A stretch of DNA of 64,000 nt from an uncultured Akkermansia sp. (GCA_947626635.1 CANQSY010000001.1:592-64591), one strand, 5' to 3'. Counted from the first letter of the stretch, positions 1,910 to 64,000 are shown. Program-made: numbers and translations. The notes: generated by a model from the sequence alone, not told the origin.

Positions 1910-2310
1910 GCAACCGCATTCAAAAATGCGGTTGCCTATTTACGATTTACGATCTCAGGGAATTCGCGCGCCGGTGGCGCGGGGTTGCAAAGTCGCCGAG
2001 GGAGCGAAGGCGGATTGGACAAAAGCGCAGCTTTTGCCCGCAGGGCGCTGGGCGCCTAACGGCGCCTATTTACGAATTTGCCACCTCTAAAAACTACCAA
2101 GGTGAAAAACGAGAGAAAAAAAGTTGAGGAGAAAGGAGTCAAAAAAGGGAAAAATGGGAGAATTTTGAGGGGAAAACATGGGAAAAATGTCCGAGAGGAT
2201 ACGCACCATCGTTTGCCCGCTATCTAAAAAAACGAGTTTTTAGAGGTACCAGAATTACGAATTACGATTTACGATGTGGAAAATTCGAGCGCTCCGCGCG
2301 GGAAGGAAGG
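1910..2310 (+). repeat. Modular palindromic repeat array, locus 1 (interrupted by a MITE-like insert)
   Basis: Hairpin GCAACCGCATT-CAAA-AATGCGGTTGC then CTATTTACGATTTACGA; module GGACAAAAGC-GCA-GCTTTTGCCC; second core at 2067; heptamers resume at about 2252. Confidence 0.85.
2083..2247. mobile_element. Putative MITE-like non-autonomous element (165 bp)
   Basis: Perfect 13-bp terminal inverted repeats ACCTCTAAAAACT (2083-2095) and AGTTTTTAGAGGT (2235-2247) around a purine-rich non-coding interior; splits a heptamer run; no clear target-site duplication. Confidence 0.45.
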
Positions 2311-2559
2311 ATATAGTATACTTTGAACTTCTTGGCACCCTTTTTTGTGCCAAAAAACTGTCGCATTTAATTTTGCGATCCACAGTTGACGCTCGGAGAA
2401 GGTAATGTGCTTGCCTTTTCGAGCAGCGGAGGTAGAATGGTGTTGGGTGTCGTGGTTCATGGTGTCTCTATTTTTTGGACGAAGTTAATATAGTATACTT
2501 TGAACTTCTTGGCACCCCTTTTTTGTGCCAAGAAACTGTCGCATTTAATTTTGCGATCC
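2311..2559. repeat. Near-identical 71-72 bp direct repeat (2311-2381 and 2488-2559)
   Basis: ATATAGTATACTTTGAACTTCTTGGCACCC..TTTTTGTGCCAA..AAACTGTCGCATTTAATTTTGCGATCC occurs twice with only 1-2 differences. Confidence 0.9.
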
Positions 2560-2588
2560 CCATCCACGCCTCCACGCGCGAAAGACTG

Positions 2589-2617
2589 TTGACAGCCTCT
2601 ATTTCGCGTGGTTTAAT
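2589..2617 (+). promoter_or_regulatory. Sigma70-type promoter of the DUF805 gene
   Basis: TTGACA-17bp-TTTAAT. Confidence 0.6.
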
Positions 2618-2640
2618 GTTCTGGGAACCAAGTAACGGAC

Positions 2641-3258
2641 ATGAATGCAAATCCTATACCGGCTTCTGATTTCATCGCCAATGTCAAGTACGGCTTCAAG
2701 CATTTCTTGACCTTTAGAGGACGCTCCACTCGTCCACAATTCTGGTGGTATTTCCTGGCATTATGTATCATCGACACTGTTTTCAAGACAATAGGCAATC
2801 TGTGTGCCGGCACGATCGATATCGATTTGAAAGAATTGGACACCACTACTGACATATTACAGACTTTATGGTCACAGCTGCCGCTCGGCCTCATTATTAT
2901 AACTATCGCCCAACTCGTCATCGGTATCATTCTTTCCATCTCGCTACTTGCTGCAACAGTTCGTCGTTTGCACGATGCCGGTCACTCCGCCTCCTTAGCC
3001 TACATCAACATGATTTTGTACATCATCATGTACGCCGGCTTCTTCGCTATGTTACTCAGTTTGTACAAGATCCTTCCTGTGATCGCTTCCTATCCTCAGC
3101 AAGGGCAAGAATCGTCTGCTATCGCGTTCTTCGCAGGTTGTTGCGCCGGTCTTGCCCTCATCGGGGCAGCCGCACTGATCCTATCGATCATCGTGCTGGT
3201 GTTCTTACTCAAGCCGAGTGAACCTCGTGATAATCGATACGGACCCTTCGTCAATTAA
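2641..3258 (+). CDS. DUF805 family inner membrane protein (YhaH/YhaI-like)
   Basis: N-terminal FRGRSTRPQFWW and ATVRRLHDAGHS motifs, C-terminal PRDNRYGP, 3-4 hydrophobic helices. Confidence 0.9.
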   Translation: MNANPIPASDFIANVKYGFKHFLTFRGRSTRPQFWWYFLALCIIDTVFKTIGNLCAGTIDIDLKELDTTTDILQTLWSQLPLGLIIITIAQLVIGIILSISLLAATVRRLHDAGHSASLAYINMILYIIMYAGFFAMLLSLYKILPVIASYPQQGQESSAIAFFAGCCAGLALIGAAALILSIIVLVFLLKPSEPRDNRYGPFVN

Positions 3259-3346
3259 CGACGACGTATCAACCTTTGAGGGCTTCTCGATGTCCGGTAT
3301 CCAACCCGGTCTTGAATTCATCGAGGAGCCCTCAAATGTTTCGGGC

Positions 3347-3374
3347 TTGCATGCCGGCGAGATAGGAGTATAAT
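3347..3374 (+). promoter_or_regulatory. Sigma70-type promoter of the SurA/PpiD-like gene
   Basis: TTGCAT-16bp-TATAAT. Confidence 0.55.
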
Positions 3375-3407
3375 AGACGCGCGCAACATAGAGAGCAAAA
3401 CGTCGCC

Positions 3408-5171
3408 ATGACTATCCTCGAATTCATTCGGAAAAATTCCCTTTTGGTCATCATCGTCATTGCAGCGGTGGGAGCCGGACTTGTGATGATGGACTACAGC
3501 GGGAAAGGCAGTGCATTTTCCAGAGACTTTTACATACGGGTAAACAATACCAGCTACGACTACCCCGAGACCGCCAATATGGGAGAGAACGGGAAGCAAT
3601 TCCTCTCTTCACTCTACTCGGCCACGCGCGACCTTATCGAACCCCTTGCCGAGGAGAATGCATCGGCCAGTGAGGAGCAAAAGCAAGAGGCCTTCATAGA
3701 ATGGCAGAGGCAACATCCCGACGTGGTTGAATCGCTCAATATGCTCAACGAGGTCTATGCCGGTTGGCATTACGGGGGGACACGGGATGACGCCGTGAAC
3801 GTGGCGATCAACCGTGCCATGTTGCATGCGGAAGCGGATGCTTGGGGACTGCATCCTTCCGAGGAACAGATTGATCTCTTTTTGCGGAGCTTACCGGCAT
3901 TTCGCACGGAGGATGGCGCCTTCAACACCGAGCTGTACCGTCGACTCGCGGGCTACCGGCATGGGCATAGCAACCGCGTGCAGGAAGAGGCCTTCCGCGC
4001 GGTGGTGGCGGACATCATCATCTGGGAGAATCTGCGGGCGATGTTAGGGAAAGGCGTAAGTTTCCAAACCGGGGCACAAACGGCCATGCTGAATGCGTTT
4101 GAGCAGAGCGTGACGGGACGGACGGCTTGGCTGGCGGCTGAAAAAGTGGGAACTCCTCCCGATCCCGGCGAGGAAGAATTAAAGGCGTACTGGGAGGAGC
4201 ACCGCAATCAGTACATGAGCGACGAGCGCAGGATTGTATCTGTTTACACCCTCTCCCCCGCTGCGGACAGCAACATGGAGAATCTGCTTTCCACCGCCGA
4301 TATGCTCATGCAGGATCTTTCCCTGGCGAACGGGCGAGGGCTGGACAAGTTGCTGGCCGATGCGCAGGACAACCCGGAATACGACGCCTTTACCTACCAA
4401 GCAGCGGACGGTAGCACACACGTCACCTACCCACTGAGTACGGAGGAGGAGCTTGAAAAGCAGCTGCAGGACCGGGTGAATTACGAAGGCAAGGAAGTGC
4501 CGCTAGCCCAGGTTGCTTTTGCGGAGATTGAGCAGGCACCGACACCGCAGGCTTACGAGGAGGCTCAAGCAGCAGGGAATGCGGAGAAGGAGCTGAGCAT
4601 CCGGCAAATCCGCGGGTTCTACAACGCAGCCGATGGCAAGTTGAAGCTCCTGCGCATTGAGGCCGTGGAGCGTCCGACGCCTCTGCCGTACGAGCAAGCG
4701 CGGGAGAAGGCTCTGGCGGATTTTCGTCGCGAGCGTGAGGCAAATGCCCTGCAGATTGCAGCAGAAAAAATCTACAAGGATATGCAAGAGGCCCTGACGA
4801 CACAGGGACTGCAAAGCGCCCTCGCCATAGCACAGAAAGCGGGAGCGCTCGTGGAGGATTTCGGTCCCGTCCAGCTATTCCGACCGACCTCTGTACTGCC
4901 CTCCGGCGTATCGGATGCCGACATCATGGGGACCCCGAGCGGAAAGATGACGCCCTTGGTGGTGCAGCCGACCGGCGCGCGCTTCACCTGTATTACCGGG
5001 CGAACCGTAGAGGACAGTCCGTCCATCACCATGCAGAAGCGGTTGTTCGAACTGCCGCGGCTCAACGCTCAGCTGCGCCACAGCATGATGCAGGAGTGGC
5101 AGAATGCAGCCTACAACCGCTTTGACGTCCAGCTCGCTCCCACGATCCGGACCATGGAGAAGGAGGACTAA
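3408..5171 (+). CDS. Membrane-anchored SurA N-terminal domain/PpiD-like periplasmic chaperone
   Basis: 587 aa; PpiD-like N-terminal anchor MTILEFIRKNSLLVIIVI; EELKAYWEEHRNQYMSDERRIVS and PLPYEQAREKA segments typical of PpiD. Confidence 0.7.
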   Translation: MTILEFIRKNSLLVIIVIAAVGAGLVMMDYSGKGSAFSRDFYIRVNNTSYDYPETANMGENGKQFLSSLYSATRDLIEPLAEENASASEEQKQEAFIEWQRQHPDVVESLNMLNEVYAGWHYGGTRDDAVNVAINRAMLHAEADAWGLHPSEEQIDLFLRSLPAFRTEDGAFNTELYRRLAGYRHGHSNRVQEEAFRAVVADIIIWENLRAMLGKGVSFQTGAQTAMLNAFEQSVTGRTAWLAAEKVGTPPDPGEEELKAYWEEHRNQYMSDERRIVSVYTLSPAADSNMENLLSTADMLMQDLSLANGRGLDKLLADAQDNPEYDAFTYQAADGSTHVTYPLSTEEELEKQLQDRVNYEGKEVPLAQVAFAEIEQAPTPQAYEEAQAAGNAEKELSIRQIRGFYNAADGKLKLLRIEAVERPTPLPYEQAREKALADFRREREANALQIAAEKIYKDMQEALTTQGLQSALAIAQKAGALVEDFGPVQLFRPTSVLPSGVSDADIMGTPSGKMTPLVVQPTGARFTCITGRTVEDSPSITMQKRLFELPRLNAQLRHSMMQEWQNAAYNRFDVQLAPTIRTMEKED

Positions 5172-5185
5172 CCGTCGCGACGACC

Positions 5186-6829
5186 ATGGCTTTCCCACCA
5201 CAGACGAAATACATTGTGGGAAATGAGGCGTGCGAGCGCTTCAGCTTTTACGGCATGCGCAGCATCCTCACGCTGTATATGCTCAGCGTGCTGTCCATGG
5301 GCGAGAGCGAGGTCGTCACGGTAGGACATTTATTCAACGCGGGCATCTACGTACTCCCGCTTGTGGGGGCGTGGCTGGCGGATCGTTTCATCGGACGCTA
5401 CCGGATGATCCTCTATGTTTCGCTCTTCTACTGTTTGGGGCATGGGATTCTGGCCACGGCGGATCTGGCCGGGAGCATTGAGATACGGCGGTGGATTCTC
5501 TTCGCGGGCTTGTTCATTATTGCTCTCGGAGCGGGAGGCATCAAACCCTGTGTCTCGGCCTTCGTCGGCGACCAGGCTGACGAGAGCGACAGCCAAACGA
5601 TGACCCGACTCTACGCTGCCTTTTATTGGTCCATTAACCTCGGTTCGTTCTTCTCTTTCCTCATTATCCCATGGGTACGGCAAAATTGGGGGTACAGCTG
5701 GGCCTTTGCCATACCGGGTATCTTCATGGCCCTTGCCACGTTGATCTTCTGGAGAGGGAGGCGCCTGTACCGTCATCGCAAGCCGTCGCAGCCCGACTTC
5801 CTGCCCTCGCTCCGGCTATGGCTGACGCATGGACGCAAGTCGGTCGAGCAACAATTCGGCGGCGAGACCCTGAAAGAAACCCGGCAGACGCTGCACGCCG
5901 TTGCGCGCTTCATCATCCTGCTCATCGCCGTGATTGCGGTGTTGGTGGCTGTATCGACAGGAACATCGCACCTAGTGCGACTGTGGGGAGTCAGCGATCA
6001 GGGAGCATCTCTGTGGAGTCTGCTGGCATGTGCGGTAACGTTGTGCTGTCTCTCCCTGCTCGTCCTGCGGACAGCAGCGGCGCGAAAAACCGATTCCTTT
6101 TTGGGCATCTTCGGCACTCGCCTCTTTTACGGATCGGAGCAAACCGACCGGAGCTACTCTGCCGGCCGCATCGCGGAAGCGCACGGACTCCTGCGCGTGT
6201 TGACGGTCTTTCTCATGATCATCCCCTTCTGGAGTTTGTTTGACCAGACGATGACCAGCTGGGTGCTTCAAGGGGAAAAGATGAGCCCCGTGGTACTTTC
6301 GCAAGCCAGTGGTCTACGCTTTGTCTTTGGGGCGGAGGAGATGCAGAGCATCAATCCGCTGTTTGTGATGGTGCTTGTTCCCGTCGTCACGCTGCTCATC
6401 TACCCGCATATCGGGCGCTGGGCCTCGCCGCTGCGTCGCATGGGCTGCGGCATCACACTCGCCGGTATTTCCTATCTCTCTGTCGCCTCCCTCCAATACC
6501 TCATCGACTCGGGTTCACAACTCTCTATCCTGTGGCAGTGCATCCCGTACCTCCTGCTTACTGTTTCGGAAATACTCGTCAGCACCACGGGCTTGGAATA
6601 TGCGTACACAGCGGCGGGACACAACCTTAAGAGCATCGTATCCGGCTTCTGGTTCCTGACGAGCACGCTGGGCAACTTCCTCGTCATTTACCTCACGCAT
6701 CTCGTCTCCGATCCCGCCTCCACCTCTACCTTCCTCCTCTACGCGGCCATGAGCATTTCCATAGGCTGCATCTTCCTCCGGGTCACCTCACGAAGCTTCT
6801 TCAGGGTAACACCCGATGAAAGCCGGTGA
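5186..6829 (+). CDS. POT/PTR family proton-dependent oligopeptide transporter (MFS)
   Basis: EACERFSFYG (ExxERFxYY) motif, GAWLADRFIGR, GGIKPCVSAFVGDQ, FYWSINLGS. Confidence 0.93.
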   Translation: MAFPPQTKYIVGNEACERFSFYGMRSILTLYMLSVLSMGESEVVTVGHLFNAGIYVLPLVGAWLADRFIGRYRMILYVSLFYCLGHGILATADLAGSIEIRRWILFAGLFIIALGAGGIKPCVSAFVGDQADESDSQTMTRLYAAFYWSINLGSFFSFLIIPWVRQNWGYSWAFAIPGIFMALATLIFWRGRRLYRHRKPSQPDFLPSLRLWLTHGRKSVEQQFGGETLKETRQTLHAVARFIILLIAVIAVLVAVSTGTSHLVRLWGVSDQGASLWSLLACAVTLCCLSLLVLRTAAARKTDSFLGIFGTRLFYGSEQTDRSYSAGRIAEAHGLLRVLTVFLMIIPFWSLFDQTMTSWVLQGEKMSPVVLSQASGLRFVFGAEEMQSINPLFVMVLVPVVTLLIYPHIGRWASPLRRMGCGITLAGISYLSVASLQYLIDSGSQLSILWQCIPYLLLTVSEILVSTTGLEYAYTAAGHNLKSIVSGFWFLTSTLGNFLVIYLTHLVSDPASTSTFLLYAAMSISIGCIFLRVTSRSFFRVTPDESR

Positions 6830-6838
6830 GGTAGGAAC

Positions 6839-20258: not shown

Positions 20259-20413
20259 GCAAACGCAAAGCGTTTGCTTATTTACGATTGATAAGACTGC
20301 CGACGGCAGTCAGGCAGGTTAGCCGAAAGCGCAGCTTTTGCCCCTAAGGCGCTGAGTCAATGCGGTACCGACGAGTCAATCAACGTCAATCGTAAATAGG
20401 CGACGTAGTCGCC
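20259..20413. repeat. Fold-back repeat element: two inverted cores around a palindromic module
   Basis: TATTTACGATTGA (20279-20291) and TCAATCGTAAATA (20386-20398), each with an outer hairpin; internal GACTGCC-GAC-GGCAGTC and AAAGC-GCA-GCTTT. Confidence 0.85.
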
Positions 20414-25036: not shown

Positions 25037-25331
25037 GGCGCCTGAGGCGCCTATTTACGATTTTCGACATACGATTTACGATTTGGGATGCTAGCGCGCC
25101 AAAGGCGCGGGATATGCGATGCAAAAGCATTGGTGGTGGGATCAATCATGGCGGAATGTTATGAGGAAAGCGGCCGGGCGCCTTCGGCGCCTATTTACGA
25201 TTTTCGATTTACGAATTACGATTTCAGGAAATTCGCGCGCGAAGCGCGTTCCAGCGGAGCGATAGCGCAGCGGAATTTTCGAGAACAATGGTAATGGATA
25301 GCTAGAAAGGCGAAGGCGCCTATTTACGATT
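25037..25331 (+). repeat. Modular palindromic repeat array (3 cores) between divergent lysS and the ABC operon
   Basis: Cores at 25052, 25192, 25321; modules GGGATGCTAGCGCGCCAAAGGCGCG.. and GAAATTCGCGCGCGAAGCGCG..GCGGAATTTTC. Confidence 0.92.
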
Positions 25332-25373
25332 GGCGATGTGGAATGCGGGCGTTGACGGTCAAAAAAAATGCAC

Positions 25374-33956: not shown

Positions 33957-34061
33957 ATGGGATCCCTGAAGAAGAGACGTAAGGCGAAGATCAACAAACA
34001 CAAGCGCAGTAAGCGCATGCGTCAAAATCGTCACAAGAAACGTTTGCGTTACAAGTCCTAA
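33957..34061 (+). CDS. Small basic ribosomal protein bS22/mS38-like (AURKAIP1/COX24 domain), 34 aa
   Basis: Manual translation MGSLKKRRKAKINKHKRSKRMRQNRHKKRLRYKS matches the family pattern MGSxxKKRRKxMxKHKxRK; TTGACA upstream; below the ORF-track cutoff. Confidence 0.85.
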   Translation: MGSLKKRRKAKINKHKRSKRMRQNRHKKRLRYKS

Positions 34062-34063: not shown

Positions 34064-34717
34064 CCCGGCAACGCCGGGCGGCGTTCCGCCGCCTATTTAC
34101 GATTTTCGATTTACGATTTACGATTTCAGGGAATTCGCGCACCGGAGGCGCGTTCCTACCGAGCAGTAGCGAAGCGGAATTCTTGAAATGTTGGTGCGGT
34201 GATAGGAGGAAAGCGCCGGGCGCCTTCGGCGCCTATTTACGATTTTCGATTTTCGAATTACAAGACTGCCGGCGGCTGCAAGGCAGGTTGGACAAAAGCG
34301 CAGCTTTTGCCCGAAGGGCAAAGCGTCAAGGCGGTCGACGGCCCCGTGTAGGGCGCACGCGTAGCGGGTGGTAAGACCGATTGGACAACGCGTGAGCGTT
34401 GCCCGTAGGGCTCAGCGCCGATGCGGCGGCGCTGAGTCAATGGGGCGGCGCTGAGTCAATTTCAGGGAATTCGCGCGCGGAGCGCGTTCCAGCCGAGCAG
34501 CAGCATAGCGGAATTCTTGAAATGTTGGTGCGGTGATTGGAGGAAAGCGCTGGGCGCCTTCGGCGCCTATTTACGATTTTCGATTTACGATTTCAGGAAA
34601 TTCGCGCGCGAAGCGCGGGATATGCTAAGCAGTAGCGAAGCGGAATTTTCAGGGTCAACGGTAATGAATAGCTAGAAAGGTGCCGGGCGCCGGGAGCCGG
34701 GAGCCTTCGGCGCCTAT
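34064..34717 (+). repeat. Largest modular palindromic repeat array (about 650 bp), ending in the hicB stop codon
   Basis: Cores at 34094, 34234, 34568 and a truncated one at about 34715; multiple hairpin modules. Confidence 0.93.
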
Positions 34718-35088
34718 ACGAGGACGACGGCGTGCTTGGCTAACGCATCGCGCAATTTTTCGGCCTCGCCGGCGCGGAAGGGCGTACCATTGCGAATACG
34801 AGCGTTGAGCGTGCGCGGCTCTATTCCGAGCAATCGAGCAACCTCCGTTTTATTGAGTACTTTGCTGGCTTTCTTCAGCGTGGATATATCAGGCGTAGGC
34901 GGAACAAAAGACGCATTGACTCCAAGCTCTGCTTCGAGGTAGCAGGCGATCGCTTCGTTGATTTCACGCAAGGCTTCCTCCTGTGTTTCACCGTGAGCGG
35001 AGCACCCGGGAAGTACCGGAACAGTGGCAACCCAGATTTCATCGTCCGAGTCCCAATCCAGTTTGATCGGATAGTGATATGCTTTCAT
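34714..35088 (-). CDS. hicB: HicB family antitoxin with C-terminal HTH
   Basis: WVATVPVLPGCSAHGETQEEALREINEAI; HTH-like NKTEVARLLGIEPRTL; start MKAYHY. Confidence 0.9.
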   Translation of the reverse strand: MKAYHYPIKLDWDSDDEIWVATVPVLPGCSAHGETQEEALREINEAIACYLEAELGVNASFVPPTPDISTLKKASKVLNKTEVARLLGIEPRTLNARIRNGTPFRAGEAEKLRDALAKHAVVLV

Positions 35089-35092
35089 ATTT

Positions 35093-35332
35093 TTATTTCG
35101 CGTTAAAGTAGTCTCTGACTTGTTTGACTTGATAGCGTTTTGCCTTTCCATTTTCACTGACTTGTAGATTGAAGGGCTGCGAGCCTTCCTTGCGGAAGTG
35201 GTAGTGCGAGCCCCTCACTCGCTTGACGTTGTACCCACGCGACAGCAGGAATTGCGAAAGTTCCTCAAAGGTGATGTTTCCATCAGAGTTTCCATCAAGG
35301 ATTTTCTCGGCAAGTTTGGCGTGCTTTGTCAC
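35093..35332 (-). CDS. hicA: HicA family mRNA interferase toxin
   Basis: ITFEELSQFL..GY...RGSHYHF..QV...GKAKRYQVKQV; probable GTG start at 35332. Confidence 0.9.
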   Translation of the reverse strand: MTKHAKLAEKILDGNSDGNITFEELSQFLLSRGYNVKRVRGSHYHFRKEGSQPFNLQVSENGKAKRYQVKQVRDYFNAK

Positions 35333-35417: not shown

Positions 35418-35660
35418 GGCGCCTAACGGTGACGCTTCGGTACCGCACTACCTCAGCGCCCTACGGGCAACGAATACGCGTTGTCCAATCCCCTTACATG
35501 CCTTCAGTGGCTTTTTACGATTTACGATTTCAGGGAATTCGCGCGCCGGAGGCGCGTTCCAGCCGAGCGATAGCTAAGCGGAATTCTTGAAATGTTGGTG
35601 CGGTGATAGGAGGAAAGCGCCGGGCGGCGTTCCGCCGCCTATTTTTGATTTTCGATTTGT
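35418..35660 (+). repeat. Modular repeat array on the upstream side of hicAB
   Basis: Module GACGCTTCGGTACCGCACTACCTC..GTTGTCCAATCCC, heptamers, GGGAATTCGCGCG..GCGGAATTC module, variant core CGCCTATTTTTGA. Confidence 0.9.
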
Positions 35661-35804
35661 TGATAACGTGCGCGTTGCGCAGATTTTTGGGATTGTTAAC
35701 GAATGCGGAATCTTCTTAAGAGCCATCATCATGATGACCGCTCGTTGCCATGATTTTTGATAGGCATCAACGATGATATCAATCAGCAAGAGCATTCTCT
35801 CCAT
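35574..35804 (-). CDS. Possible small orphan ORF whose 3-prime end runs into the repeat
   Basis: 76 aa, hydrophobic N-terminus, GGAAG upstream; could be a remnant or spurious. Confidence 0.25.
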   Translation of the reverse strand: MERMLLLIDIIVDAYQKSWQRAVIMMMALKKIPHSLTIPKICATRTLSTNRKSKIGGGTPPGAFLLSPHQHFKNSA

Positions 35805-42976: not shown

Positions 42977-43324
42977 GGCGGCGGGCGGCGTTCCGTTGAC
43001 GCTTCGGTACCGCACTACCTCAACGCCCTGCGGGCAACGCTTGCGCGTTGTCCAATCCCACTCCGGGCCCTCGTGGGCTTTGCCTATTTACGATTTTCGA
43101 TTTACGATTTACGATTTCAGGGAATTCGCGCGCGGCGCGCGGGGAGGCAAAGCCGGTGCGGAGCGGAATTTTTAAATGATGAAGAGGTGATAGGAGGAAA
43201 GCGCCGGGCGCCTATTGGCGCCTATTTACGATTTTCGATTTGGAAATAATGCGCGCGGAGCGCGGGGTGCGGAAGTTCCGTCCCCAGAGCAAACGCGTTT
43301 GAGAGAAGTTCATCAACGGAGAAA
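42977..43324 (+). repeat. Modular repeat array between rsfS and yoeB
   Basis: Cores at 43085 and 43223; begins immediately after the rsfS stop. Confidence 0.92.
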
Positions 43325-43345: not shown

Positions 43346-43621
43346 CTAATGCGGCTGCCCATAGTGCCCCATCATGGACAAAACTTCTACAACGCCTGCT
43401 TCCTCATTGACGCGATACACCAGCCGATCCTTCCTGTTGATCCGCCGCGACCAGCACTCCGCCAGCTCATACTTCAGCGGCTCCGGCTTCCCCCTCCCAA
43501 AGTATGGAGTCTCTGCTACTTCGCGCAGAAGCTCCTCTATTTTTTCCGCCGCCTTCCTATCCCTTTTCACCCACGCCTTCCTCTCCTTCTCCGCCTCAAG
43601 CGTCAGAATGATCTTCATCAT
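43346..43621 (-). CDS. yoeB: Txe/YoeB family toxin
   Basis: GKPEPLKY.L...WSRRI...DRLVY. Confidence 0.93.
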   Translation of the reverse strand: MMKIILTLEAEKERKAWVKRDRKAAEKIEELLREVAETPYFGRGKPEPLKYELAECWSRRINRKDRLVYRVNEEAGVVEVLSMMGHYGQPH

Positions 43622-43874
43622 AAAACATGCCCTTGTATTCAACGAGTTCTCCTCTCTTTGCCTGATCCAGCGACTTCAGCAAATGCGCCCTGTTCACCGG
43701 ATTATCCAGCAGATACCTCGTCTCCTCCTCGCTCGCCCAATCATCATACGGCACCATCACAACCTTCCTCCCGCGACTCGTAATCACCACGGGCTGACTG
43801 TCATCCACGCATTCCTTCATCAAACTCGCCAAATTCTGGCGCGCCTTACTGTAACTTACTACGGTCGGACACAT
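43596..43874 (-). CDS. yefM: Phd/YefM family antitoxin
   Basis: VSYSKARQNLA, PVVITSRG, EETRYLL..PVNRAHL..S. Confidence 0.93.
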   Translation of the reverse strand: MCPTVVSYSKARQNLASLMKECVDDSQPVVITSRGRKVVMVPYDDWASEEETRYLLDNPVNRAHLLKSLDQAKRGELVEYKGMFYDEDHSDA

Positions 43875-43885
43875 AACCCCTTTAT

Positions 43886-43904
43886 TGTACACAAAACTTG
43901 TACT
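43886..43904. promoter_or_regulatory. Putative YefM operator overlapping the promoter
   Basis: TGTACA (43886-43891) and TGTACT (43899-43904) cores; - strand TCGACA-16bp-TACAAT. Confidence 0.5.
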
Positions 43905-43934
43905 TTGTCGATCTAAAAAAATACACACACCGGG

Positions 43935-44333
43935 GCAAACGCATTTTCCAATGCGTTTGCTATTTACGATTTACGAATTACGATTTACGATTTGGGATGC
44001 TAGCGCGCCAAAGGCGCGGGATATGCTAAGCAGTAGCGAAGCGGAATTTCCGAGAGCAATGGTGATGGATAGCTAGAAAGGAGCCGGGCGGCGGGCGCCT
44101 GGGCTGCGCCTATTTACGATTACGAATTACGTTGACTCACCGCCGCCCCATCGACGGTTCGCCCTGCGGGCAAAAGCACCGCTTTTGTCCAATCCCACTC
44201 CGGGCCCTCGTGGGCTTTGCCTATTTACGATTTTCGATTTTCGAATTACGATTTCGGGGAATTCGCGCACCGGGGGCGCGTTCCAGCCGAGCGATAGCGA
44301 AGCGGAATTTTCGAGGACGAGGGGGCGGCGTTC
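43935..44333 (+). repeat. Modular repeat array on the upstream side of yefM-yoeB
   Basis: Cores at 43961, 44111, 44222; ends at a hairpin loop directly abutting the next stop codon. Confidence 0.92.
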
Positions 44334-46593: not shown

Positions 46594-47535
46594 TCATTGA
46601 GGGAGGGTTAAACCGACGCCCTCATGCAGGGCATCATCCAAATCAGTGCGGAAACTCGCATCGAACACATCGTCGAAACACTCTGCATGCGTGCAGCTCA
46701 AACTCTCGTACACGTCATCCAACGCATCAGAAAAGGTGTCAAATTGCTCGCTATCGTAACCGGGAAGCCCAACGATGCGAACGATCTCATTGCGGATCTT
46801 CCAGAGAACAGTTTCCAACTCACGACAGACGCCCAGCAGCTCTTCGCGCTGGTTGTCCGGGAAGTTGAATGCGCAGAGACGCAACTCCGGCTGTGCATCG
46901 CTCATTTTTTTTGCCAATTGGTGCAACTGCGGCGCGATACGGGTCGCCGTCGGGGCATCCTTGACCATGACGAGTAAGCTCAACAGTTGATCGTCCGGCT
47001 TCCGCAGCGCGCGGAGGCGACGAATCTCAATGACGGCGGCGGACGATGTGAGCACAAGTGTCGTGGTATGCAAATACACCTCATCCTCATCGCTGAATAT
47101 GCCCTCCCGTATTGCCTTGGTAAAGGCGCGGGTGAGCCCCGCCGAACCGTAACAGCGAGCGCGACAAAGGCTGGTAAACTCGCTGCTCAGCTCTTCATAC
47201 GCCTCCGCAATCCGATACGTATCCTCGTTGTCCAGCGCCTCGACGTCCAGCGCCTGCGCGTCAGCATCAAACATAGCGTTGCTCAATTCAGCGGATTGTT
47301 CGACAAGGCGGGAAAATTTCTCCGCCGCCCGATCAGCCGTCTCCTTGTTCATGACGCCGGAAAGCAGCAGCCACATCTCATTGGTGACGCGTAAAAGCTT
47401 CGAGGAGACAGCTCCGCCGTCCGGATTTCGTCCCTGCTCGGGAGCCGTTCCGGCAGCAAACGCTGACGGCAGCAAAATGATTGCTGCTATCACAAAGCCC
47501 GTCAGCCGCCAGATCCCTTTCATCTCGCCGCTCAT
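46594..47535 (-). CDS. Secreted hypothetical protein with two internal alpha-helical repeats
   Basis: Signal peptide ending SAFA-AG; duplicated LLxxVxxxxTAxRxA segments. Confidence 0.72.
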   Translation of the reverse strand: MSGEMKGIWRLTGFVIAAIILLPSAFAAGTAPEQGRNPDGGAVSSKLLRVTNEMWLLLSGVMNKETADRAAEKFSRLVEQSAELSNAMFDADAQALDVEALDNEDTYRIAEAYEELSSEFTSLCRARCYGSAGLTRAFTKAIREGIFSDEDEVYLHTTTLVLTSSAAVIEIRRLRALRKPDDQLLSLLVMVKDAPTATRIAPQLHQLAKKMSDAQPELRLCAFNFPDNQREELLGVCRELETVLWKIRNEIVRIVGLPGYDSEQFDTFSDALDDVYESLSCTHAECFDDVFDASFRTDLDDALHEGVGLTLPQ

Positions 47536-47624: not shown

Positions 47625-48020
47625 GGGCGCCGGGCGCCTTCGGCGCCTATTTACGATTTTCGATTTTCGATTTACGATTTCAGGGAATTCGCGCGCGAAG
47701 CGCGGGATATGCCAGGCAGTAGCGAAGCGGAATTTTCGAGGACGAGGGGCGGTGATGAAAGGAAAGCGGCGGAGGGCCGGGCGCCTTCGGCGCCTATTTA
47801 CGATTTTCGATTTTCGAATTACGATTTGGAATGCTAGCGCGCCAAAGGCGCGGGATATGCGATGCAAGGGCATCGGTGGTGGGATCAATCATGGCGGGAT
47901 GTTATGAGGAAAGCGGCCGGGCGGCGTTCCGCCGCCTATTTACGAATTACGATTTACGAATTACGATTTGGGATGCTAGTGCGCCAAAGGCGCGGGGGAG
48001 CGGAGCGCCTCCTTGCGCTC
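47625..48020 (+). repeat. Modular repeat array (3 cores) between divergent genes
   Basis: Cores at 47648, 47795, 47937; one module nearly identical to 25081-25180. Confidence 0.92.
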
Positions 48021-55738: not shown

Positions 55739-55780
55739 CTATGCCCCTATTCTACCACATACCGCGCCCAATGCAAGCCC

Positions 55781-55932
55781 CGGGCGCCTTCGGCGCCTAT
55801 TTACGATTTTCGATTTACGATCTACGATTTGGAATTAATGCGCGCCGGGGGCGCGTTCCAGTGGAGCGTATGCAAAGCGGAATTTTCAGGGTCAACGGTA
55901 ATGAATAGCTAGAAAGGAGCTGGGCGCCTTCG
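55781..55932 (+). repeat. Single repeat unit (core, module, half core)
   Basis: Core at 55798; ends within the next hairpin at GGGCGCCTTCG. Confidence 0.9.
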
Positions 55933-55957: not shown

Positions 55958-57055
55958 TCACAGGTCCCGTCCGAAAACCTCTGATTGGCGGCCGCTGGAC
56001 TCGAGAGCTTGGAGTCGGGCGGGGGGCAGGACGGAGCGGGAGAGCTGGGCGTAGTGGAGACGGTTGCGGAAGTAGTCCACCGCGCTTTGAGAGACGGCAA
56101 AGATACGACGGAATCCCCGGTTTCTCGCTTTTTCCTCAACGAAGTGGCACATGGCACGTCCGTACCCATGTCCCTCGTAACTTTTCTTGATAAAGAGGCA
56201 ACCCAACTCCGCGCATGATTCTTCCGGGTAAGGATAGAGAGCGACGCAGCCCACGATCGTGTCGTCCAGCGTGTAAACGTAGTAGCTGTGCAGCTCGGCG
56301 CGGATGCTTTCGTAGGTGCGTTGCAGCAGTTTCTCGTCCGCCACGCAGCGAGCTATCATCGAGAGCAGCTCGGGAATATCATCCTCCTGCACGGGGCGAA
56401 TCTCGCGGTAGGAGTCGGCGTGCACCATGGTGCCGACCCCTTCCTCGGAGAAAATCTCATCGAGCAGCACGCCACGTCGACGTCCGTTCAGCAAGTGCAC
56501 ACGCGGGATGCCGCGCCGGCAGACGCAAGCCGCGGCGCGGAGTTCCTCCGCGTGACTGCACTCCGCAAGGCTGCGCTCGACCTCACTCTCGAGAATGGCG
56601 AAGATAGGCTGGCCCGCGCGGGAGGGGACCTCGTCGGTCTGCAGACAAATGTATTTAGCCGCGTTGAGCTCCACCGCCAGCTGCACACTCCCCCCATCAA
56701 AGCGACCCTGCGAGCCGGAGGCGATGATGGCGACCTGACGCCGGTCGATGATTTCGCGCACGCGACTCACGGCGGCAGGGTCCGTCAACGCGATACCGGC
56801 GGCGGCGGCGTGCATCTCGCAGATGTCCGCCCGATGCGCCAGCGAGTCTGCGCTGTCGCCCTCCGCCACGAGGACGAGACGAACGCCGATCTCATGCAGC
56901 GCGTCCACATCCAGCAGCGCGTCCACCAGTTCGTCCGCCTCGAGCAGGCTGCGGCTGATATGCACGACGAAGAGACGCCCTTGGAAGTAGGGCACGTATT
57001 CCAGCACTGAGCGGATGTTGGCGGACATACTCACTGCATGGTCAAGGAAGGACAC
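55958..57055 (-). CDS. argA: Amino-acid N-acetyltransferase (N-acetylglutamate synthase, AAK plus GNAT)
   Basis: YVPYFQGRLFVV, GIPRVHLLNG..LLDEIFSEEGVGTM, AELGCL, RSGRQSEV. Confidence 0.88.
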   Translation of the reverse strand: MSFLDHAVSMSANIRSVLEYVPYFQGRLFVVHISRSLLEADELVDALLDVDALHEIGVRLVLVAEGDSADSLAHRADICEMHAAAAGIALTDPAAVSRVREIIDRRQVAIIASGSQGRFDGGSVQLAVELNAAKYICLQTDEVPSRAGQPIFAILESEVERSLAECSHAEELRAAACVCRRGIPRVHLLNGRRRGVLLDEIFSEEGVGTMVHADSYREIRPVQEDDIPELLSMIARCVADEKLLQRTYESIRAELHSYYVYTLDDTIVGCVALYPYPEESCAELGCLFIKKSYEGHGYGRAMCHFVEEKARNRGFRRIFAVSQSAVDYFRNRLHYAQLSRSVLPPARLQALESSGRQSEVFGRDL

Positions 57056-57057
57056 TC

Positions 57058-60309: not shown

Positions 60310-60361
60310 ATCGAATAGCTGTTGGTATATTCCCTCGCGAGCAGGTGTCCCCGCGCGCGTC

Positions 60362-60390
60362 ATCCTACCATAGCTCGCGCTCGTTTGCAA
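60362..60390 (-). promoter_or_regulatory. Promoter of secA
   Basis: TTGCAA-17bp-TAGGAT with TGG extension. Confidence 0.6.
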
Positions 60391-60440
60391 GGGGAATGTC
60401 GTTGCTTTACGCGTGGAGACACAAAATTCCGGGCGGGGGC

Positions 60441-60985
60441 CGGGCGCCTTCGGCGCCTATTTACGATTTTCGATTTACGATTTACGATCTCAGGGAATTC
60501 GCGCGCGAAGCGCGGGATATGCCAAGCAGTAGCGAAGCGGAATTTTCAGGGTCAACGGTAATGAATAGCTAGAAAGGAGCCGGTGGCGCCTGGGCTGCGC
60601 CTATTTACGATTTTCGATTTACGTTGACTCACCGCCGCCCCATCGACGGTTCGCCCTGCGGGCAAAAGCACCGCTTTTGTCCAATCCCCCTCCGAGCCCT
60701 CGGGGGCTTTTTACGATCTCAGGGAATTCGCGCGCGAAGCGCGGGATATGCCAAGCAGTAGCGAAGCGGAATTTTCAGGGTCAACGGTAATGAATAGCTA
60801 GAAAGGAGCCGGTGGCGCCTAGGCTGCGCCTATTTACGATTTTCGATTTACGTTGACTCACCGCCGCCCCATCGACGGTTCGCCCTGCGGGCAACGCGTG
60901 AGCGTTGTCCGCAGGGCGCTGAGGTAGTGCGGTACCGAAGCGTCAAAGCAGTAGCGAAGCGGAATTCTTGAAATGATGGTGCGTT
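60441..60985 (+). repeat. Modular repeat array containing a 229-bp-period tandem duplication
   Basis: Cores at 60458, 60602, 60831; 60481-60665 repeated at 60710-60894. Confidence 0.93.
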
Positions 60986-61006
60986 GGGGTGGTATCTCGG
61001 CATACC

Positions 61007-62260
61007 TCACCCGTTCAAACAGGCGGGGTTGAGGAGGAAATCGCGGAGGGGGAGGATGAAGATGCCGAAGGGGTCGTAGTGAGCAGCGGGCGCATCACGA
61101 GTGATGAGGACCTTTTTGAAGGAATCGCTGACGGCAAGCAGGGGGCGCTCCTCCTGTTCGCGTTTTTCACGGGTGGGAATGGAAAGAGAGGACTGGATGT
61201 AGATGCGTGAATCGCCGAGGTTGGCGACAAAATCGACCTCCACTTTTTTTCGCTCACGCGAGGCTTTACCCTTGTCCTTGTCCACTTCCACGGATCCGAC
61301 ATCCACATTGTAGCCGCGGATGAGTAGCTCGTTGTAAATCACGTTTTCCATGATGTGAGCCTCCTCCGTCTGGCGGAAATTGATGCAAGCATTGCGCAGC
61401 CCCATGTCCACAAAATAATACTTGTAGGGGGAATCAATGTAACGGTTTCCGCGGATATCGAAACGTTCAGCACGTTGGATGAGGAACGCCTCCTGCAGGA
61501 GATCGAGAAATTGCTTGATCGTGGGAGCAGAAAGATTGACGTGTTTGACACTCGCGAAGCAGTTTGCCAGCTTACGGGGGTTGAGCAGGCAGCTGATGTT
61601 TGACGCCAGGATGTTCATCAATTCGTCAAGCTCCTCCGTCTTGCGAAGTCGGTTGCGCTCGATCATGTCGCGCAGGTAGGTCTCACGGAAGAGAGAACGC
61701 AGGTATTGCATCTTCTTCCTCGGCTCATCGATGGAGAGTGTGAGCGGCATACCTCCGTAGAGGATGTACTCCTTCCATGCCTCCTCCCAGTAGCAATCCT
61801 TCACCGAATAAAACTCGGCAAAGCTCAGCGGATGCACGCGCACCTCGTCGCCGCGTCCTCGAAACTCCGTCACCACGTCACTCGACAGAAAACGCGAGTT
61901 GCTCCCCGTCACGTAGATGTCGAGATGGCGCACACGCAGCAAGCCATTGAGCACACTCTCGAAGTCCGCCATCATCTGCACCTCATCCAGCAGCAGATAG
62001 TACATCTCTTCATCACGTATTTGCGCTTTCACGTACCGGTAGCATTCCTCCGGGTCGCGGTATTTCCGCTCATCAAAATTATCCAGAGCCAAGCTGATGA
62101 TGTGGTCCTCCCTCACCCCCGACTCCAGCAAATGGCGACGAAACAACTCGAAAAGAAGATAGGATTTGCCGCAGCGCCGGACCCCGCTCACAATTTTGAT
62201 CAGCCCGTTTTCCCGTTTGGAAACAAGTTGATCGATATACTCTTTTCGTTTAATTTCCAT
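61007..62260 (-). CDS. AAA_14 ATPase with C-terminal DUF4143 domain
   Basis: GVRRCGKS, LLDEVQ, TGSNS, KYYFVDMGLRN, ENVIYNEL, EVDFV; start MEIKRK at 62260; lower GC. Confidence 0.9.
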   Translation of the reverse strand: MEIKRKEYIDQLVSKRENGLIKIVSGVRRCGKSYLLFELFRRHLLESGVREDHIISLALDNFDERKYRDPEECYRYVKAQIRDEEMYYLLLDEVQMMADFESVLNGLLRVRHLDIYVTGSNSRFLSSDVVTEFRGRGDEVRVHPLSFAEFYSVKDCYWEEAWKEYILYGGMPLTLSIDEPRKKMQYLRSLFRETYLRDMIERNRLRKTEELDELMNILASNISCLLNPRKLANCFASVKHVNLSAPTIKQFLDLLQEAFLIQRAERFDIRGNRYIDSPYKYYFVDMGLRNACINFRQTEEAHIMENVIYNELLIRGYNVDVGSVEVDKDKGKASRERKKVEVDFVANLGDSRIYIQSSLSIPTREKREQEERPLLAVSDSFKKVLITRDAPAAHYDPFGIFILPLRDFLLNPACLNG

Positions 62261-62272
62261 AGGTTTATAATT

Positions 62273-62318
62273 TTCTATTTTACACAATGCGGGAATTCCC
62301 GCGAAGTGTAAAATAGAA
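62273..62318. promoter_or_regulatory. 46-bp interrupted palindrome in the leader/promoter of the DUF4143 ATPase
   Basis: TTCTATTTTACAC-AAT-GCGGGAATTCCCGC-GAA-GTGTAAAATAGAA. Confidence 0.6.
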
Positions 62319-62341
62319 TATACGCAAAAGCCTCCCTTTTG

Positions 62342-62405
62342 GCAAGACAATTCACTTGCTATTTACGGGGCGCCGGGCGCCTTCGGCGCCTATTTACGAT
62401 TTACC
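62342..62405 (+). repeat. Minimal repeat array (2 cores) between the DUF4143 ATPase and the gltA stop
   Basis: GCAAG..CTTGC-TATTTACG (62360) and GGCGCC-TTC-GGCGCC-TATTTACGATTTAC (62391). Confidence 0.85.
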
Positions 62406-63543
62406 TCATGTCCAGCATGGGAACGAGGAGGGGCTCATTGGTCCCCACGTAGCGGGAGAGCGGACGGAAGAGGGTGTTGTCCTCCAACTGCTCGAGGATT
62501 TGCGCGACCCAGCCAGCGACGCGAGCGATGGCGAAGACGGTGGTGAACATCCGGGTGGGGATGCCTAGGCTGTAGTAAACGGTGGCGGAATAGAAATCGA
62601 CGTTGGCGTTGAGATTTTTTCGGTCGCGCAGGATTTTGGCAATCATGTCGCTCATGCGGATCCACTTGGGTTCGCCGATGGTTTGGGTGAGGCGGATGGC
62701 GATGCGGCGCAGCTGCGGCGCGCGCGGATCGAGAGTCTTGTACACGCGGTGTCCGATGCCGAAGATTTTCTCGTGGTTCGCGAGTTTCTCATTGATGTAC
62801 GCCTCCACGTTGGACTCTTCCCCGATCTCCTTGAGCATCTCGATCACCGCTTCATTGGCGCCGCCGTGCAGCGGTCCCTTGAGGGTGCCGATGGCAGAGG
62901 TGATGCAGGAATACATGTCCGACAGGGTGGAGGCCGTCACTCGGGAGGAGAAGGTAGAGGCGTTCATCCCGTGGTCAGCGTGCAGAATGTACGCCACGTC
63001 CAGGATATGCGCCTCGCCCGGGTCCGGCTCCTTCCCCTTCAACAGCCAGAGGAAATGCGCCGCCTCGTCGAGATCCGTGCGGATGGGCGGCAGGTCCAAC
63101 CCCTGGCAGGTGCGGTAGTAATAGGCCGCCATCACCGGCAACTTGGCGATGAGCGACAGCCCGATCTCCTTCATCTGCGTCGGGTCCTTTGTCCGGTCGT
63201 CGTACATGCCGAGCATGGAGACCGCCGTGCGCAGCGCGCTCATGGGACGCGCCGTCTTAGTGGCGGTCTTGAAGAAATCCAGAATCGGCTGCGGCAGCTC
63301 GCGATCCGTGCGCAATCTCTGCTGCAGACCCATGAGTTCTTGTCGATTCGGCAGCCTCTTGTTGAGCAGGAGATAGATGATCTCCCCGTAGGAACAGAGA
63401 TCCACCAAATCCTCAATATCGTACCCGCAGTAAAGCAAACGTCCCTCCTCACCCCGCACATCGCTGAGCCGTGTTTCATTCGCTACAATGCCTTTGAGCC
63501 CTTTGCTGTAGATTGGTTGAGGCGCGTCGCTGTCGGGTGTCAT
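62401..63543 (-). CDS. gltA: Citrate synthase
   Basis: YSKGLKG, LHADHGMNAST, GPLHGGANE, GIGHRVYK, NVDFYS; start MTPDSD. Confidence 0.96.
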   Translation of the reverse strand: MTPDSDAPQPIYSKGLKGIVANETRLSDVRGEEGRLLYCGYDIEDLVDLCSYGEIIYLLLNKRLPNRQELMGLQQRLRTDRELPQPILDFFKTATKTARPMSALRTAVSMLGMYDDRTKDPTQMKEIGLSLIAKLPVMAAYYYRTCQGLDLPPIRTDLDEAAHFLWLLKGKEPDPGEAHILDVAYILHADHGMNASTFSSRVTASTLSDMYSCITSAIGTLKGPLHGGANEAVIEMLKEIGEESNVEAYINEKLANHEKIFGIGHRVYKTLDPRAPQLRRIAIRLTQTIGEPKWIRMSDMIAKILRDRKNLNANVDFYSATVYYSLGIPTRMFTTVFAIARVAGWVAQILEQLEDNTLFRPLSRYVGTNEPLLVPMLDMR

Positions 63544-63630
63544 CTTCTCGTTCAGGGGGTGGAGGGTTCGTTTCCGTCGGTGAAGCGTCGTGACGCATCG
63601 ACGGAGCTCCCGCATCGTTGCGGCTTGCGT

Positions 63631-63659
63631 ACTGTAGCGTAAAATCGGCCCTCTGTCAA
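63631..63659 (-). promoter_or_regulatory. Promoter of gltA
   Basis: TTGACA-17bp-TACAGT. Confidence 0.65.
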
Positions 63660-63725
63660 CACATCCGTCCCAAGAAAAAACACCCCCAATAAGTGGTTAA
63701 CGGCGTATCACGCAGCATAAGTTGT

Positions 63726-64000
63726 TGATTATTTACGAATTACGATTTCAGGGAATTCGCGCGCGAAGCGCGGGATATGCCAAGCAGTAGCGAAGCGGAA
63801 TTTTCGGGAGCAATGGTGATAGTAGCTAGAAAGGGAAGAGGAAGAAGAGCCGGGCTGCGCCTATTTACGATTTACGATTTACGATTTGGGATGCTAGCGC
63901 GCCAGTGGCGCGGGGGAGCAAAGCCGCCGATGGATCGGAGGCCGATTGGATAAAAGCGCGGCTTTTGTCCAGCCTTCCTCCCCCGTCCGCACCTGCTTGA
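63726..64000 (+). repeat. Modular repeat array running to the window end
   Basis: Cores at 63730 and 63862; GGGAATTCGCGCGCGAAGCGCG module; GGATAAAAGC-GCG-GCTTTTGTCC module. Confidence 0.9.

Follow-up and report, generated by a model that had tools for sequence, protein, structure and literature searches.

A candidate REP-like family of tagged hairpins with variable stems in uncultured Akkermansia

Introduction

Repetitive extragenic palindromic (REP) sequences fall into superfamilies with a stem of 5-13 bp, an unpaired conserved tag at one end and frequent clustering, and one of these superfamilies lacks a dedicated transposase (PMC3733652). Bacterial interspersed mosaic elements (REP/BIME) and REP doublets forming hairpins (REPINs) are GTAG-tagged palindromes mobilized by Y1 transposases, the REP-associated tyrosine transposases or RAYTs (PMC3116915, PMC3733652). 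Here, we describe hairpins of variable sequence that directly precede a fixed motif, (C)TATTTACGA, in a 64,000-nucleotide stretch of DNA (hereafter, the window) from the genome of an uncultured Akkermansia sp. (G000; GCA_947626635.1, C1:592-64591), the assembly of which comprises 2.16 Mb in 155 contigs with 56% GC. We propose, with moderate confidence, that hairpin and motif are the core of a REP/BIME-type repeat family (i.e., tagged palindromes), which is non-coding and non-autonomous, was amplified in certain lineages, and acts at the DNA level.

The core reads stem-CTATTTACGA on the written strand and TCGTAAATAG-stem on the complement. Like REP, BIME, and REPIN sequences, it is a short, extragenic, GC-rich palindrome with a stem of 5-13 bp, a variable loop, and an unpaired tag directly at one stem end; on the complement, TAAATAG adjoins the GC stem in Akkermansia as GTAG does in Escherichia coli. 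Further likenesses are the hundreds of copies, the mosaics with other motifs, and a very uneven copy number between related species. However, the Akkermansia tag is a 9-10-mer with ATAG instead of GTAG beside the stem, and it runs into a heptad microsatellite. Moreover, almost all of its copies are arranged head-to-tail, whereas head-head and tail-tail dimers dominate in REPs. Inverted dimers are likewise not the main unit here, unlike in REPINs: orientation is mixed in only 3 of the 204 core clusters found genome-wide, and the window holds a fold-back at 20259-20413. The REP-RAYT pairing, in which REPs usually flank the RAYT gene, differs as well, since no RAYT or other Y1_Tnp protein was found in seven repeat-rich Akkermansia genomes, and core orientation is uniform over whole contigs.

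The CGTC-tagged REPs are also tagged palindromes in a genome without a dedicated transposase, but they have a different tag, stems of 8-9 bp and loops of 4-5 nt, are rarely clustered, and lack a heptad run (PMC3733652). The ends and miniatures of IS200/IS605 elements (IS608, ISDra2) resemble the Akkermansia repeats in combining a subterminal hairpin with a nearby short cleavage or target motif, in lacking terminal inverted repeats (TIRs) and target site duplications (TSDs), and in their strand polarity (PMC5027513, PMC3201880); in addition, the Akkermansia heptad contains TTAC, the IS608 target. Integron attC sites are similar in that they fold alike despite differing in sequence, carry a conserved 7-mer at the foot, are co-oriented, and bound a gene, but the Akkermansia repeats lack IntI, the R''/R' consensus and extrahelical bases, have a GGC/GCC foot and the tag TATTTACGA, and are dispersed instead of forming one array. 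Finally, the short tandemly repeated repetitive (STRR) sequences of cyanobacteria are intergenic tandem heptamers (e.g., CCCCAGT) that are abundant in some lineages only. They resemble the Akkermansia heptads in being intergenic, tandem and lineage-restricted, and differ from them in unit sequence; STRR heptamers are not known to be anchored to a tagged hairpin.

Results

Exact copies of the motif TATTTACGA number 25 in the window (24 on the plus strand and 1 on the minus strand), where 0.14 would be expected from shuffles (maximum, 2), and 306 in the whole genome. We searched for perfect stems, or stems with one G.T pair, of at least 5 bp ending 0-1 nt 5' of the motif, and found such a stem abutting 214 of the 306 copies; shuffled upstream sequence yielded a mean of 14 (maximum, 20), and sliding the anchor 12 nt upstream yielded 19. 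The abutting stems comprise 44 distinct sequences of 5-13 bp, such as GGCGCC/GGCGCC, GGCGGTG/CACCGCC, GGCGGCG/CGCCGCC, GGTGGCG/CGCCACC, GGCGGAG/CTCCGCC, GGCGAC/GTCGCC, and GGCAA(A/C)CGCATT/AATGCG(T/G)TTGCC. About 5 of the 25 window copies (those at 25321, 43085, 44222, 63730, and 63862) have only a 3-4 bp or G.T-containing stem.

A covariance model trained on 17 window copies was searched in the window and in 73 loci of two sister species, and covariation was assessed in the best 150 aligned matches (145 of them distinct) out of 196, with 500 shuffles and slid registers as controls. Paired cells amounted to 96.6%, compared with 77.8% in shuffles, and 170 cells were changed on both sides, compared with 66. 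The covariation score was 0.417 against 0.137 for shuffled alignments, a value reached in none of the 500 shuffles, and all slid registers scored far lower. Three foot pairs (GGC/GCC) are invariant, and three inner pairs vary. Since the covariation lies mostly between two large stem classes (the GGCGCC type and the GGCAAACGCATT type), the independent events are fewer than the cells and modest in number. The initial annotation had described a stem that varies yet stays paired beside a fixed motif, and had named a covariance model as the way to check it; the abutting stems and a covariation above that of every shuffle bear this description out, and its seven example hairpins (1910, 20259, 43935, 34079/47922, 20399 on the minus strand, and 62342) are all in place. 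The hairpin type of 34079/47922 (CGGCG-TTC-CGCCG) was also found at 35625, and the hairpin at 62342 precedes TATTTACGG rather than TATTTACGA. Collectively, constraint acts on pairing together with a fixed adjacent motif.

Folded as DNA, on either strand, the hairpins reach -9.4 kcal/mol (short) to -15.5 kcal/mol (long, with z of -6 to -7). The unit as a whole showed no global fold beyond these local hairpins (z of -1.2 and -1.35), and an Rfam scan of the window gave no match at the gathering score. Among distinct stems of at least 7 bp, 61 of 86 are perfect, and one-mismatch stems carry G.T/T.G in 3 cases, A.C/C.A in 7, and other types in 15, so that wobble pairs are not in excess on either strand, as would be the case for a DNA palindrome or after recent copying. 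In short GC stems, 107 of 160 loops begin with T and end with C on the written strand (T..C), and these take 11 distinct forms (e.g., TTC, TAGC, TGGC, TATC, TGAC, and TAAC), the complements of which are G(N)1-2A (GAA, GCTA, GCCA, GATA, GTCA, and GTTA). When closed by C.G, G(N)A and G(NN)A form stable mini-loops in single-stranded DNA. The loop asymmetry points weakly to the complementary strand, (TCGTAAA)n-TAG-stem, as the folded one; its layout matches that of a GTAG-tagged REP in which GTAG is replaced by ATAG.

The core belongs to a larger, mosaic unit. The stem is followed by TA and then by heptads (TTTACGA, TTTTCGA, or ATTACGA), usually 1-5, most often 4, and up to 12 in number. On their 3' side lies TTT(C/G)(A/G)GGAAT.. 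and a second GC hairpin (e.g., CGCGC-GAA-GCGCG or GCGCGCC-AAA-GGCGCGC), and the interval up to the next core is filled by varied modules, each with further small hairpins. One of these, the "D" module of ~95 nt (AAAGCCC...TCAA), occurs in either orientation between heptad runs. Core-to-core spacing has its main peak at 140-149 nt and a second one at 220-259 nt. Of the 204 clusters, 80 contain 2-4 cores, which share one orientation in 77 and are mixed in 3. As a side observation, a phage-like region (C38, 9.2-17.3 kb; also C113, C117, C135, and C152) holds short genes, and the gaps between them contain heptad runs in inverted pairs, with a GCGCGC hairpin at the center of each pair; these pairs form long fold-backs, in contrast to the head-to-tail chromosomal arrays.

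An all-vs-all comparison of intergenic sequences revealed 85 pairs from different loci that match over 90 nt or more at an identity of 96% or higher. The shared segments (100-190 nt, 96-100% identical) lie at unlinked loci, and in core-containing pairs the identity starts or stops inside the hairpin or the heptads. In addition, copies with ~98% identity elsewhere may differ in the hairpin loop (TGGC vs GTA), and one and the same module may follow different hairpins. Neither TIRs nor target duplications were found in the shared core-family segments. The left junctions of five inspected D modules lie at TTAC (3), TTGAT (1), and AGGC (1), with the cut point ambiguous owing to heptad homology at both junctions. 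The D module thus starts directly past TTAC at three of the five, and it ends in TCAA ~10 nt past the hairpin foot. The right end of IS608 has the same geometry, with TCAA ~10 nt past its hairpin foot. The remaining D-module junctions are not at TTAC and no TnpA or TnpB was found here, in both of which the family differs from IS200/IS605 elements.

Outside G000, nearly all exact matches to the core motif are from metagenome-assembled genomes (MAGs) of uncultured rabbit-gut Akkermansia ("Lapin" series). The exact 19-mer GCCTATTTACGANTTNCGA is present in 3 of 121 family genomes, all of them Akkermansia, with 175, 99, and 5 copies. Among 151 species of the genus, 100 contain the heptad dimer, and copy numbers range from 0 to 762, an unevenness that fits selfish amplification; complete genomes of the large human type (2.7-3.5 Mb) have 0 or 1. 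We found no support for chimeric MAGs as the cause of the uneven repeat density. In a viral collection, many heptad microsatellites were found, none with the GCC-TATTTACGA core. In sister species (~82% identity), the SecA-citrate synthase gap carries the core in reverse orientation, and the gap beside the GNAT acetyltransferase gene (55958-57055) has no core and is bordered differently. Together with the uneven copy numbers, these differences in occupancy and orientation of the same gap argue for continued turnover, and turnover and burst-like copy numbers of this sort are typical of selfish repeats (compare PMC3733652). Sister species also carry a parallel family, with the hairpin GGCACC-GGA-GGTGCC, TA, and TGGACGA heptads (L119 1330-1400, G021:C80; L134 1170-1300), in which the architecture is conserved and the heptad sequence is different.

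Contig-wide polarity is real. Within contigs, 97 of 113 clusters have the majority orientation, whereas 78 would be expected and none of 10,000 simulations exceeded 91 (e.g., counts in one given orientation of 13/13 on C1, 7/7 on C3, 6/6 on C43, and 0/5 on C37), and the core positions listed for one sister genome are similarly uniform. In G000, polarity agreed neither with gene strand nor with the raw skew of each contig, and GC skew at four-fold sites was noisy. By local GC skew, C-rich written strands outnumber G-rich ones by 33 clusters to 12 in G000, whereas they are outnumbered 24 to 41 in 8-kb loci of the sister species G021 and G241, a contradiction as regards the lagging-strand bias of IS200/IS605 elements. 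A closed relative (G054, AP025943.1; examined over 0-2.4 Mb) has a clean GC-skew switch that places the origin at ~1.23 Mb, with skew sign in 20-kb windows giving the replichore in 116 of 118 windows. We mapped 490 orthologues between it and G000; only 47% have leading-strand positions, and beyond operons, almost nothing of the gene order is shared. Given this scrambling and the lack of a gene-strand bias in G054, replichore direction is not transferable to G000.

With the genes of G000 predicted by a crude dicodon call (85% of the genome coding), 291 of the 306 TATTTACGA copies are intergenic. The upstream gene runs into the hairpin at 65 clusters (i.e., it is co-directional), with the motif at most 60 nt past the stop codon in 42 of them, and it points away at 109 clusters, where the hairpin faces a gene start at a median distance of 89 nt. 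In gaps between co-directional genes, antisense cores outnumber sense cores (54 vs 25). Standard TTGACA/TAnAAT promoters were located between arrays and genes, and the arrays therefore lie outside the promoter-gene interval. Heptads as promoters were also considered and rejected, as no consistent -35/-10 pair was found.

Two kinds of mobile DNA border on the heptads. Four other Akkermansia species have the AAA_14/DUF4143 gene (61000-62367) at 91-96% identity, compared with ~82% for neighboring genes, and it lies there on different contigs and in different contexts; a paralogue is present on C22. In each of the four species, its promoter-side end, ...GGCAAGACAA(TTCA), directly abuts a heptad run, while in G000, seven extra bases (CTTGCTA) pair with the GCAAG of the cassette itself to give the hairpin at 62342. 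The sequence comparison points to recent horizontal movement of this gene, and its junctions would fit recombination at heptads or hairpin. The second kind is a 175-bp miniature inverted-repeat transposable element (TIR-MITE) with an 18-bp TIR (TCTGGCACCTCTAAAAAC) and a 3-bp TSD, of which 10 copies are 89-100% identical (one at window positions 2079-2253, the others on C17, C43 [two], C63, C69 [two], C89, C98, and C133). Eight of the 10 interrupt heptad runs, all in one register (ACGA-NTT-ACGA), which makes these runs real insertion hotspots. A full-length parent IS was not found among the contigs of G000. The core family itself was excluded as a DDE-type TIR-MITE, having neither TIR nor TSD, unlike the 175-bp element of the same genome.

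The repeat features of the window, which otherwise encodes the usual Akkermansia housekeeping set (e.g., SecA, FtsH, UvrD, citrate synthase, TrkH, and a GH2 glycosidase), are listed in Table 1.

Table 1. Core arrays and associated features in the window
Feature	Position	Strand	Composition and remarks
Array 1, two cores	1910..2078	+	Hairpin GCAACCGCATT-CAAA-AATGCGGTTGC (1910-1935), C, TATTTACGA (1937-1945); long hairpin -15.5 kcal/mol as DNA, z -6.1
Array 1, second core	2051-2075	+	GGCGCC-TAAC-GGCGCC + TATTTACGA
Module between array 1 cores	within 1910..2078	+	GCGCGCC-GGT-GGCGCG and GGACAAAAGCGCAGCTTTTGCCC hairpins
Array 1, remaining heptads (ATTACGA ATTACGA TTTACGA) and second hairpin	2254..2300	+	Separated from 2075 by the inserted 175-bp TIR-MITE
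Fold-back unit, plus-strand core	20259-20287	+	GCAAACGC-AAA-GCGTTTGC + TATTTACGA; unit spans 20259..20413
Fold-back unit, minus-strand core	20390-20413	-	GGCGAC-TAC-GTCGCC + TATTTACGA
Fold-back interior	between the cores of 20259..20413		D-type module; 13-bp inverted repeat TATTTACGATTGA
Three-core array	25037..25345	+	Motifs at 25052, 25192, 25321; spacing 140 and 129 nt; third stem only 4 bp
Array 3 nt past the stop of the 34-aa bS22-like gene (33957-34061)	34064..34700	+	Cores 34094 (GGCGGCG-TTC-CGCCGCC), 34234 and 34568 (GGCGCC-TTC-GGCGCC)
D-type modules inserted after ATTAC	34262	+	Within array 34064..34700
Array with degenerate core	35427..35665	+	GGCGGCG-TTC-CGCCGCC + TATTTTTGA (35623-35648)
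Array with D module ending in minimal foot	42977..43290	+	GGC-TTT-GCC + TATTTACGA (43085); GGCGCC-TATT-GGCGCC + TATTTACGA (43223)
Three-core array	43935..44333	+	43961 (GCAAACGCATT-TTCC-AATGCGTTTGC), 44111 (GGCGC-CTGGGCT-GCGCC), 44222 (GGC-TTT-GCC foot)
Three-core array	47625..48010	+	Cores 47648, 47795, 47937; spacing 147 and 142 nt
Single unit	55775..55932	+	Begins GGGCGCC-TTC-GGCGCC + TATTTACGA (55798); terminates in half hairpin GGGCGCCTTCG
Array	60435..60999	+	Cores 60458, 60602, 60831
AAA_14/DUF4143 ATPase gene segment	61000..62367	-	Repeat arrays at both ends; 91-96% identical in four other Akkermansia species
Two nested cores	62342..62405	+	GCAAG-ACAATTCA-CTTGC + TATTTACGG, then GGCGCC-TTC-GGCGCC + TATTTACGA TTTAC
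Array to window end	63711..64000	+	Cores 63730, 63862, both with weak stems

Several of these arrays have further traits. Positions 42985-43140 match a segment of C88 at 97-99% identity; the array at 47625..48010 lies directly upstream of the TTGAAA-17-TACAAT promoter of a minus-strand gene (46594-47535); the array at 60435..60999 contains a 229-nt tandem duplication (60481-60665 vs 60710-60894, 99% identical); and after the nested cores at 62342..62405, unique DNA begins directly after TTTAC. Beside array 1, two overlapping minus-strand genes (153-1860), the larger with AAA_21/AAA_15 (AbiEii-like) ATPase domains, likely constitute a defense system. Antitoxin genes, each located between repeat arrays, are Phd/YefM with a small partner open reading frame (ORF) at 43346-43928 and a HicB-like gene at 34714-35157. 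The bS22-like ribosomal protein is identical in sequence throughout the genus. A 47-nt direct repeat, CCCTTTTTTGTGCCAAAAAACTGTCGCATTTAATTTTGCGATCC (2338-2384 and 2516-2562, 96% identity), upstream of a DUF805 gene is unrelated to the core family.

Discussion

The best explanation, to which we give about an even chance, is that of a non-autonomous tagged-palindrome family acting as DNA, present as GC-rich palindrome arrays that run head-to-tail with shuffled hairpin modules at a ~140-nt period in ~200 intergenic loci. The constraint would then be on the DNA and not on a transcript. An enzyme or process would read a folded single strand, probably the complement 5'-(TCGTAAA)n-TAG-stem-G(N)A-stem, and cutting or joining in the tag or heptads would produce strand-polar copies without TIR or TSD, as well as tandem arrays. 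With many loci sharing the core, ordinary homologous recombination between cores would shuffle modules and may occasionally carry a gene, such as AAA_14, between arrays and species. Effects on transcription would be side effects; about one-fifth of the clusters, in sense orientation right past a stop codon, may terminate transcription or stabilize mRNA.

Several results weigh against this explanation, among them those of the enzyme search. Y1_Tnp (PF01797; IS200/IS605 TnpA and RAYT) gave no match, even at E<=10, in any of seven repeat-rich MAGs, G000 included, and is present in 37 of 61 other genomes of the genus. Moreover, Y2_Tnp (IS91; PF04986) and the TnpB zinc ribbon (PF07282) gave nothing above cut-off in the seven repeat-rich genomes. 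In these genomes, no Pfam-type Y1 or Y2 HUH transposase is the mobilizing enzyme. Every repeat-rich genome is a fragmented MAG (110-220 contigs, with contigs ending in heptads), from which a multi-copy transposase gene may have been lost; seven independent losses are unlikely. Tyrosine recombinases were considered as partner enzyme and rejected: all genomes of the genus have them, with 1-14 copies in repeat-free ones and no clear correlation in copy number, and none adjoins an array. Head-to-tail arrays are rare in classical REPs (PMC3733652). Polarity and GC skew are inconsistent between G000 and its sister species, which leaves a link to the replication fork unproven. Finally, no clean empty site that would define the unit ends was found, and no insertion polymorphism was seen, as contigs from two other samples, the only others of the strain, are 99.9-100% identical through the arrays. 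Apart from these points, many Akkermansia genomes, closed ones included, contain one ~350-aa ORF that matches Y1_Tnp weakly (E of 1e-8 to 1e-11), looks like a domesticated RAYT, and is absent from the repeat-rich lineages.

Could the elements instead act as RNA? The hairpin and its U-rich tail, UAUUUACGAUUUU, would then be an intrinsic terminator or a 3'-end mRNA stabilizer, and the arrays would be stacked terminators or small RNA genes. The core does have the GC-rich stem-loop of an intrinsic terminator, and 42 of the 65 clusters after a co-directional gene have the motif close to the stop codon. In addition, the core alone follows the bS22-like gene in G000, replacing the canonical stem and T-run found there in A. 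muciniphila-type genomes, and in two sister species, a sense core lies ~35 nt past the citrate synthase stop. Nevertheless, we regard this explanation as unlikely. With 4 T in 8, the tail, TATTTACG, does not satisfy a scan requiring at least 5 T in 8 after the stem, which only the TATTTTTGA variant at 35622 passes, and terminator-like matches within 33-49 kb were not above shuffles (22 vs 18.4). More clusters face a gene start (109) than follow a co-directional gene, and antisense cores prevail in co-directional gaps. Canonical terminators accompany 7% of sites with a sense core and 14% of those without (small numbers), with no clear replacement effect, and other repeat-rich Akkermansia species also use canonical stem and T-run terminators. 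The stems show no G.U excess, and neither an Rfam match nor a global fold was found; termination, for its part, needs neither an invariant 9-mer nor a heptad microsatellite. The plain terminator that the initial annotation had offered as its alternative is therefore mostly rejected, although some sense copies may terminate or stabilize transcripts without explaining the family. A relic family that spread in the past and today has no dedicated enzyme, being altered now only by replication slippage in the heptads, by tandem duplication, and by gene conversion or homologous recombination among its dispersed copies, would account for the lack of the expected transposase kinds in seven genomes, the 229-nt tandem duplication, the invariance between samples, and breakpoints in sequence common to all copies, as from gene conversion; CGTC-type REPs lack a transposase as well (PMC3733652). 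However, copy numbers of 0-762 between species and the differing occupancy and orientation of the same gap indicate continued turnover, copies are 97-100% identical at unlinked loci, and contig-wide polarity needs a directional process, so that we assign this possibility a small probability.

We consider it quite improbable that the system is integron-like, with the folded hairpin and heptad as the site of a tyrosine recombinase and the genes between arrays as mobile cassettes. G000 does have nine matches to a ~350-aa family of XerC/D/IntI-like tyrosine recombinases (eight in the predicted gene set), the AAA_14 gene is 91-96% identical across species at different loci with its end abutting a heptad array each time, toxin-antitoxin genes (Phd and HicB) lie between arrays, and the cores are co-oriented. 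Yet two scanned recombinase paralogues score 31 and 26 bits against the integron integrase (TIGR02249) cut-off of 265 and are far below the Xer cut-offs too, and the recombinases occur in repeat-free genomes and do not adjoin arrays. Accessory genes were not significantly enriched between arrays in a crude genome-wide test of genes repeat-flanked on both sides (65% vs 53%, p 0.29), and the cores are spread between housekeeping genes at ~200 loci. The likeness to attC proposed at the outset accordingly failed, as there are no integron integrase, no RYYYAAC/GTTRRRY core sites, and no extrahelical bases in the perfect stems of these dispersed loci. The accompanying comparison with HUH-transposase ends stood in part: a tagged palindrome without TIR or TSD, strand polarity, and breakpoints at hairpin or tag are real likenesses to HUH-transposase ends and REPs, while membership is not supported, with Y1_Tnp, Y2_Tnp, and TnpB all missing from the seven genomes. 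A bolder and improbable proposal is that hairpin, tag, and heptads form the recognition or crossover site of a strand-specific recombination or transposition system, with an enzyme outside Y1/Y2 HUH, TnpB, and IntI, that would build head-to-tail arrays, shuffle modules, and move genes (AAA_14, toxin-antitoxin) between heptad "landing pads," its polarity marking chromosomal direction. Very unlikely, in our view, are host-function sites (i.e., binding arrays for a nucleoid, replication, segregation, or regulatory protein), in which the palindrome would be a dimer site, the heptads iterons, and the polarity comparable to that of FtsK-orienting polar sequences (KOPS) or Chi. Perfect palindromes, an invariant tag, orientation uniform over tens of kilobases, and sites just upstream of promoters would suit such a role. 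Against it, the sites are few or missing in most Akkermansia species, so that the function would be neither essential nor general; stem sequences differ among copies, which a sequence-specific dimer would not tolerate; a 7-bp period would not hold the sites to one face of the helix; and polarity does not follow GC skew.

For each of the RAYT-REP, IS200/IS605, and integron systems, some defining features were tested and not found, and membership of the Akkermansia tagged palindromes in any of them is thus not shown. Their unusual features are a tag fused to a heptad microsatellite, head-to-tail arrays, contig-wide polarity, and no HUH enzyme found. Our literature search returned no interspersed repeat family of this kind in Akkermansia, no Akkermansia repeat paper, and no mention of heptad dimers. 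Akkermansia is a much-studied gut genus, and this repeat family breaks short-read assemblies, marks certain animal-gut lineages, and offers strain-typing markers. As a preferred target of the TIR-MITE and the border of a horizontally moving gene, the heptad runs may act as hotspots of genome plasticity. More broadly, the family provides a natural case of tagged palindromes without RAYT, arranged head-to-tail and with contig-wide polarity, and thereby bears on how REP-like repeats spread.

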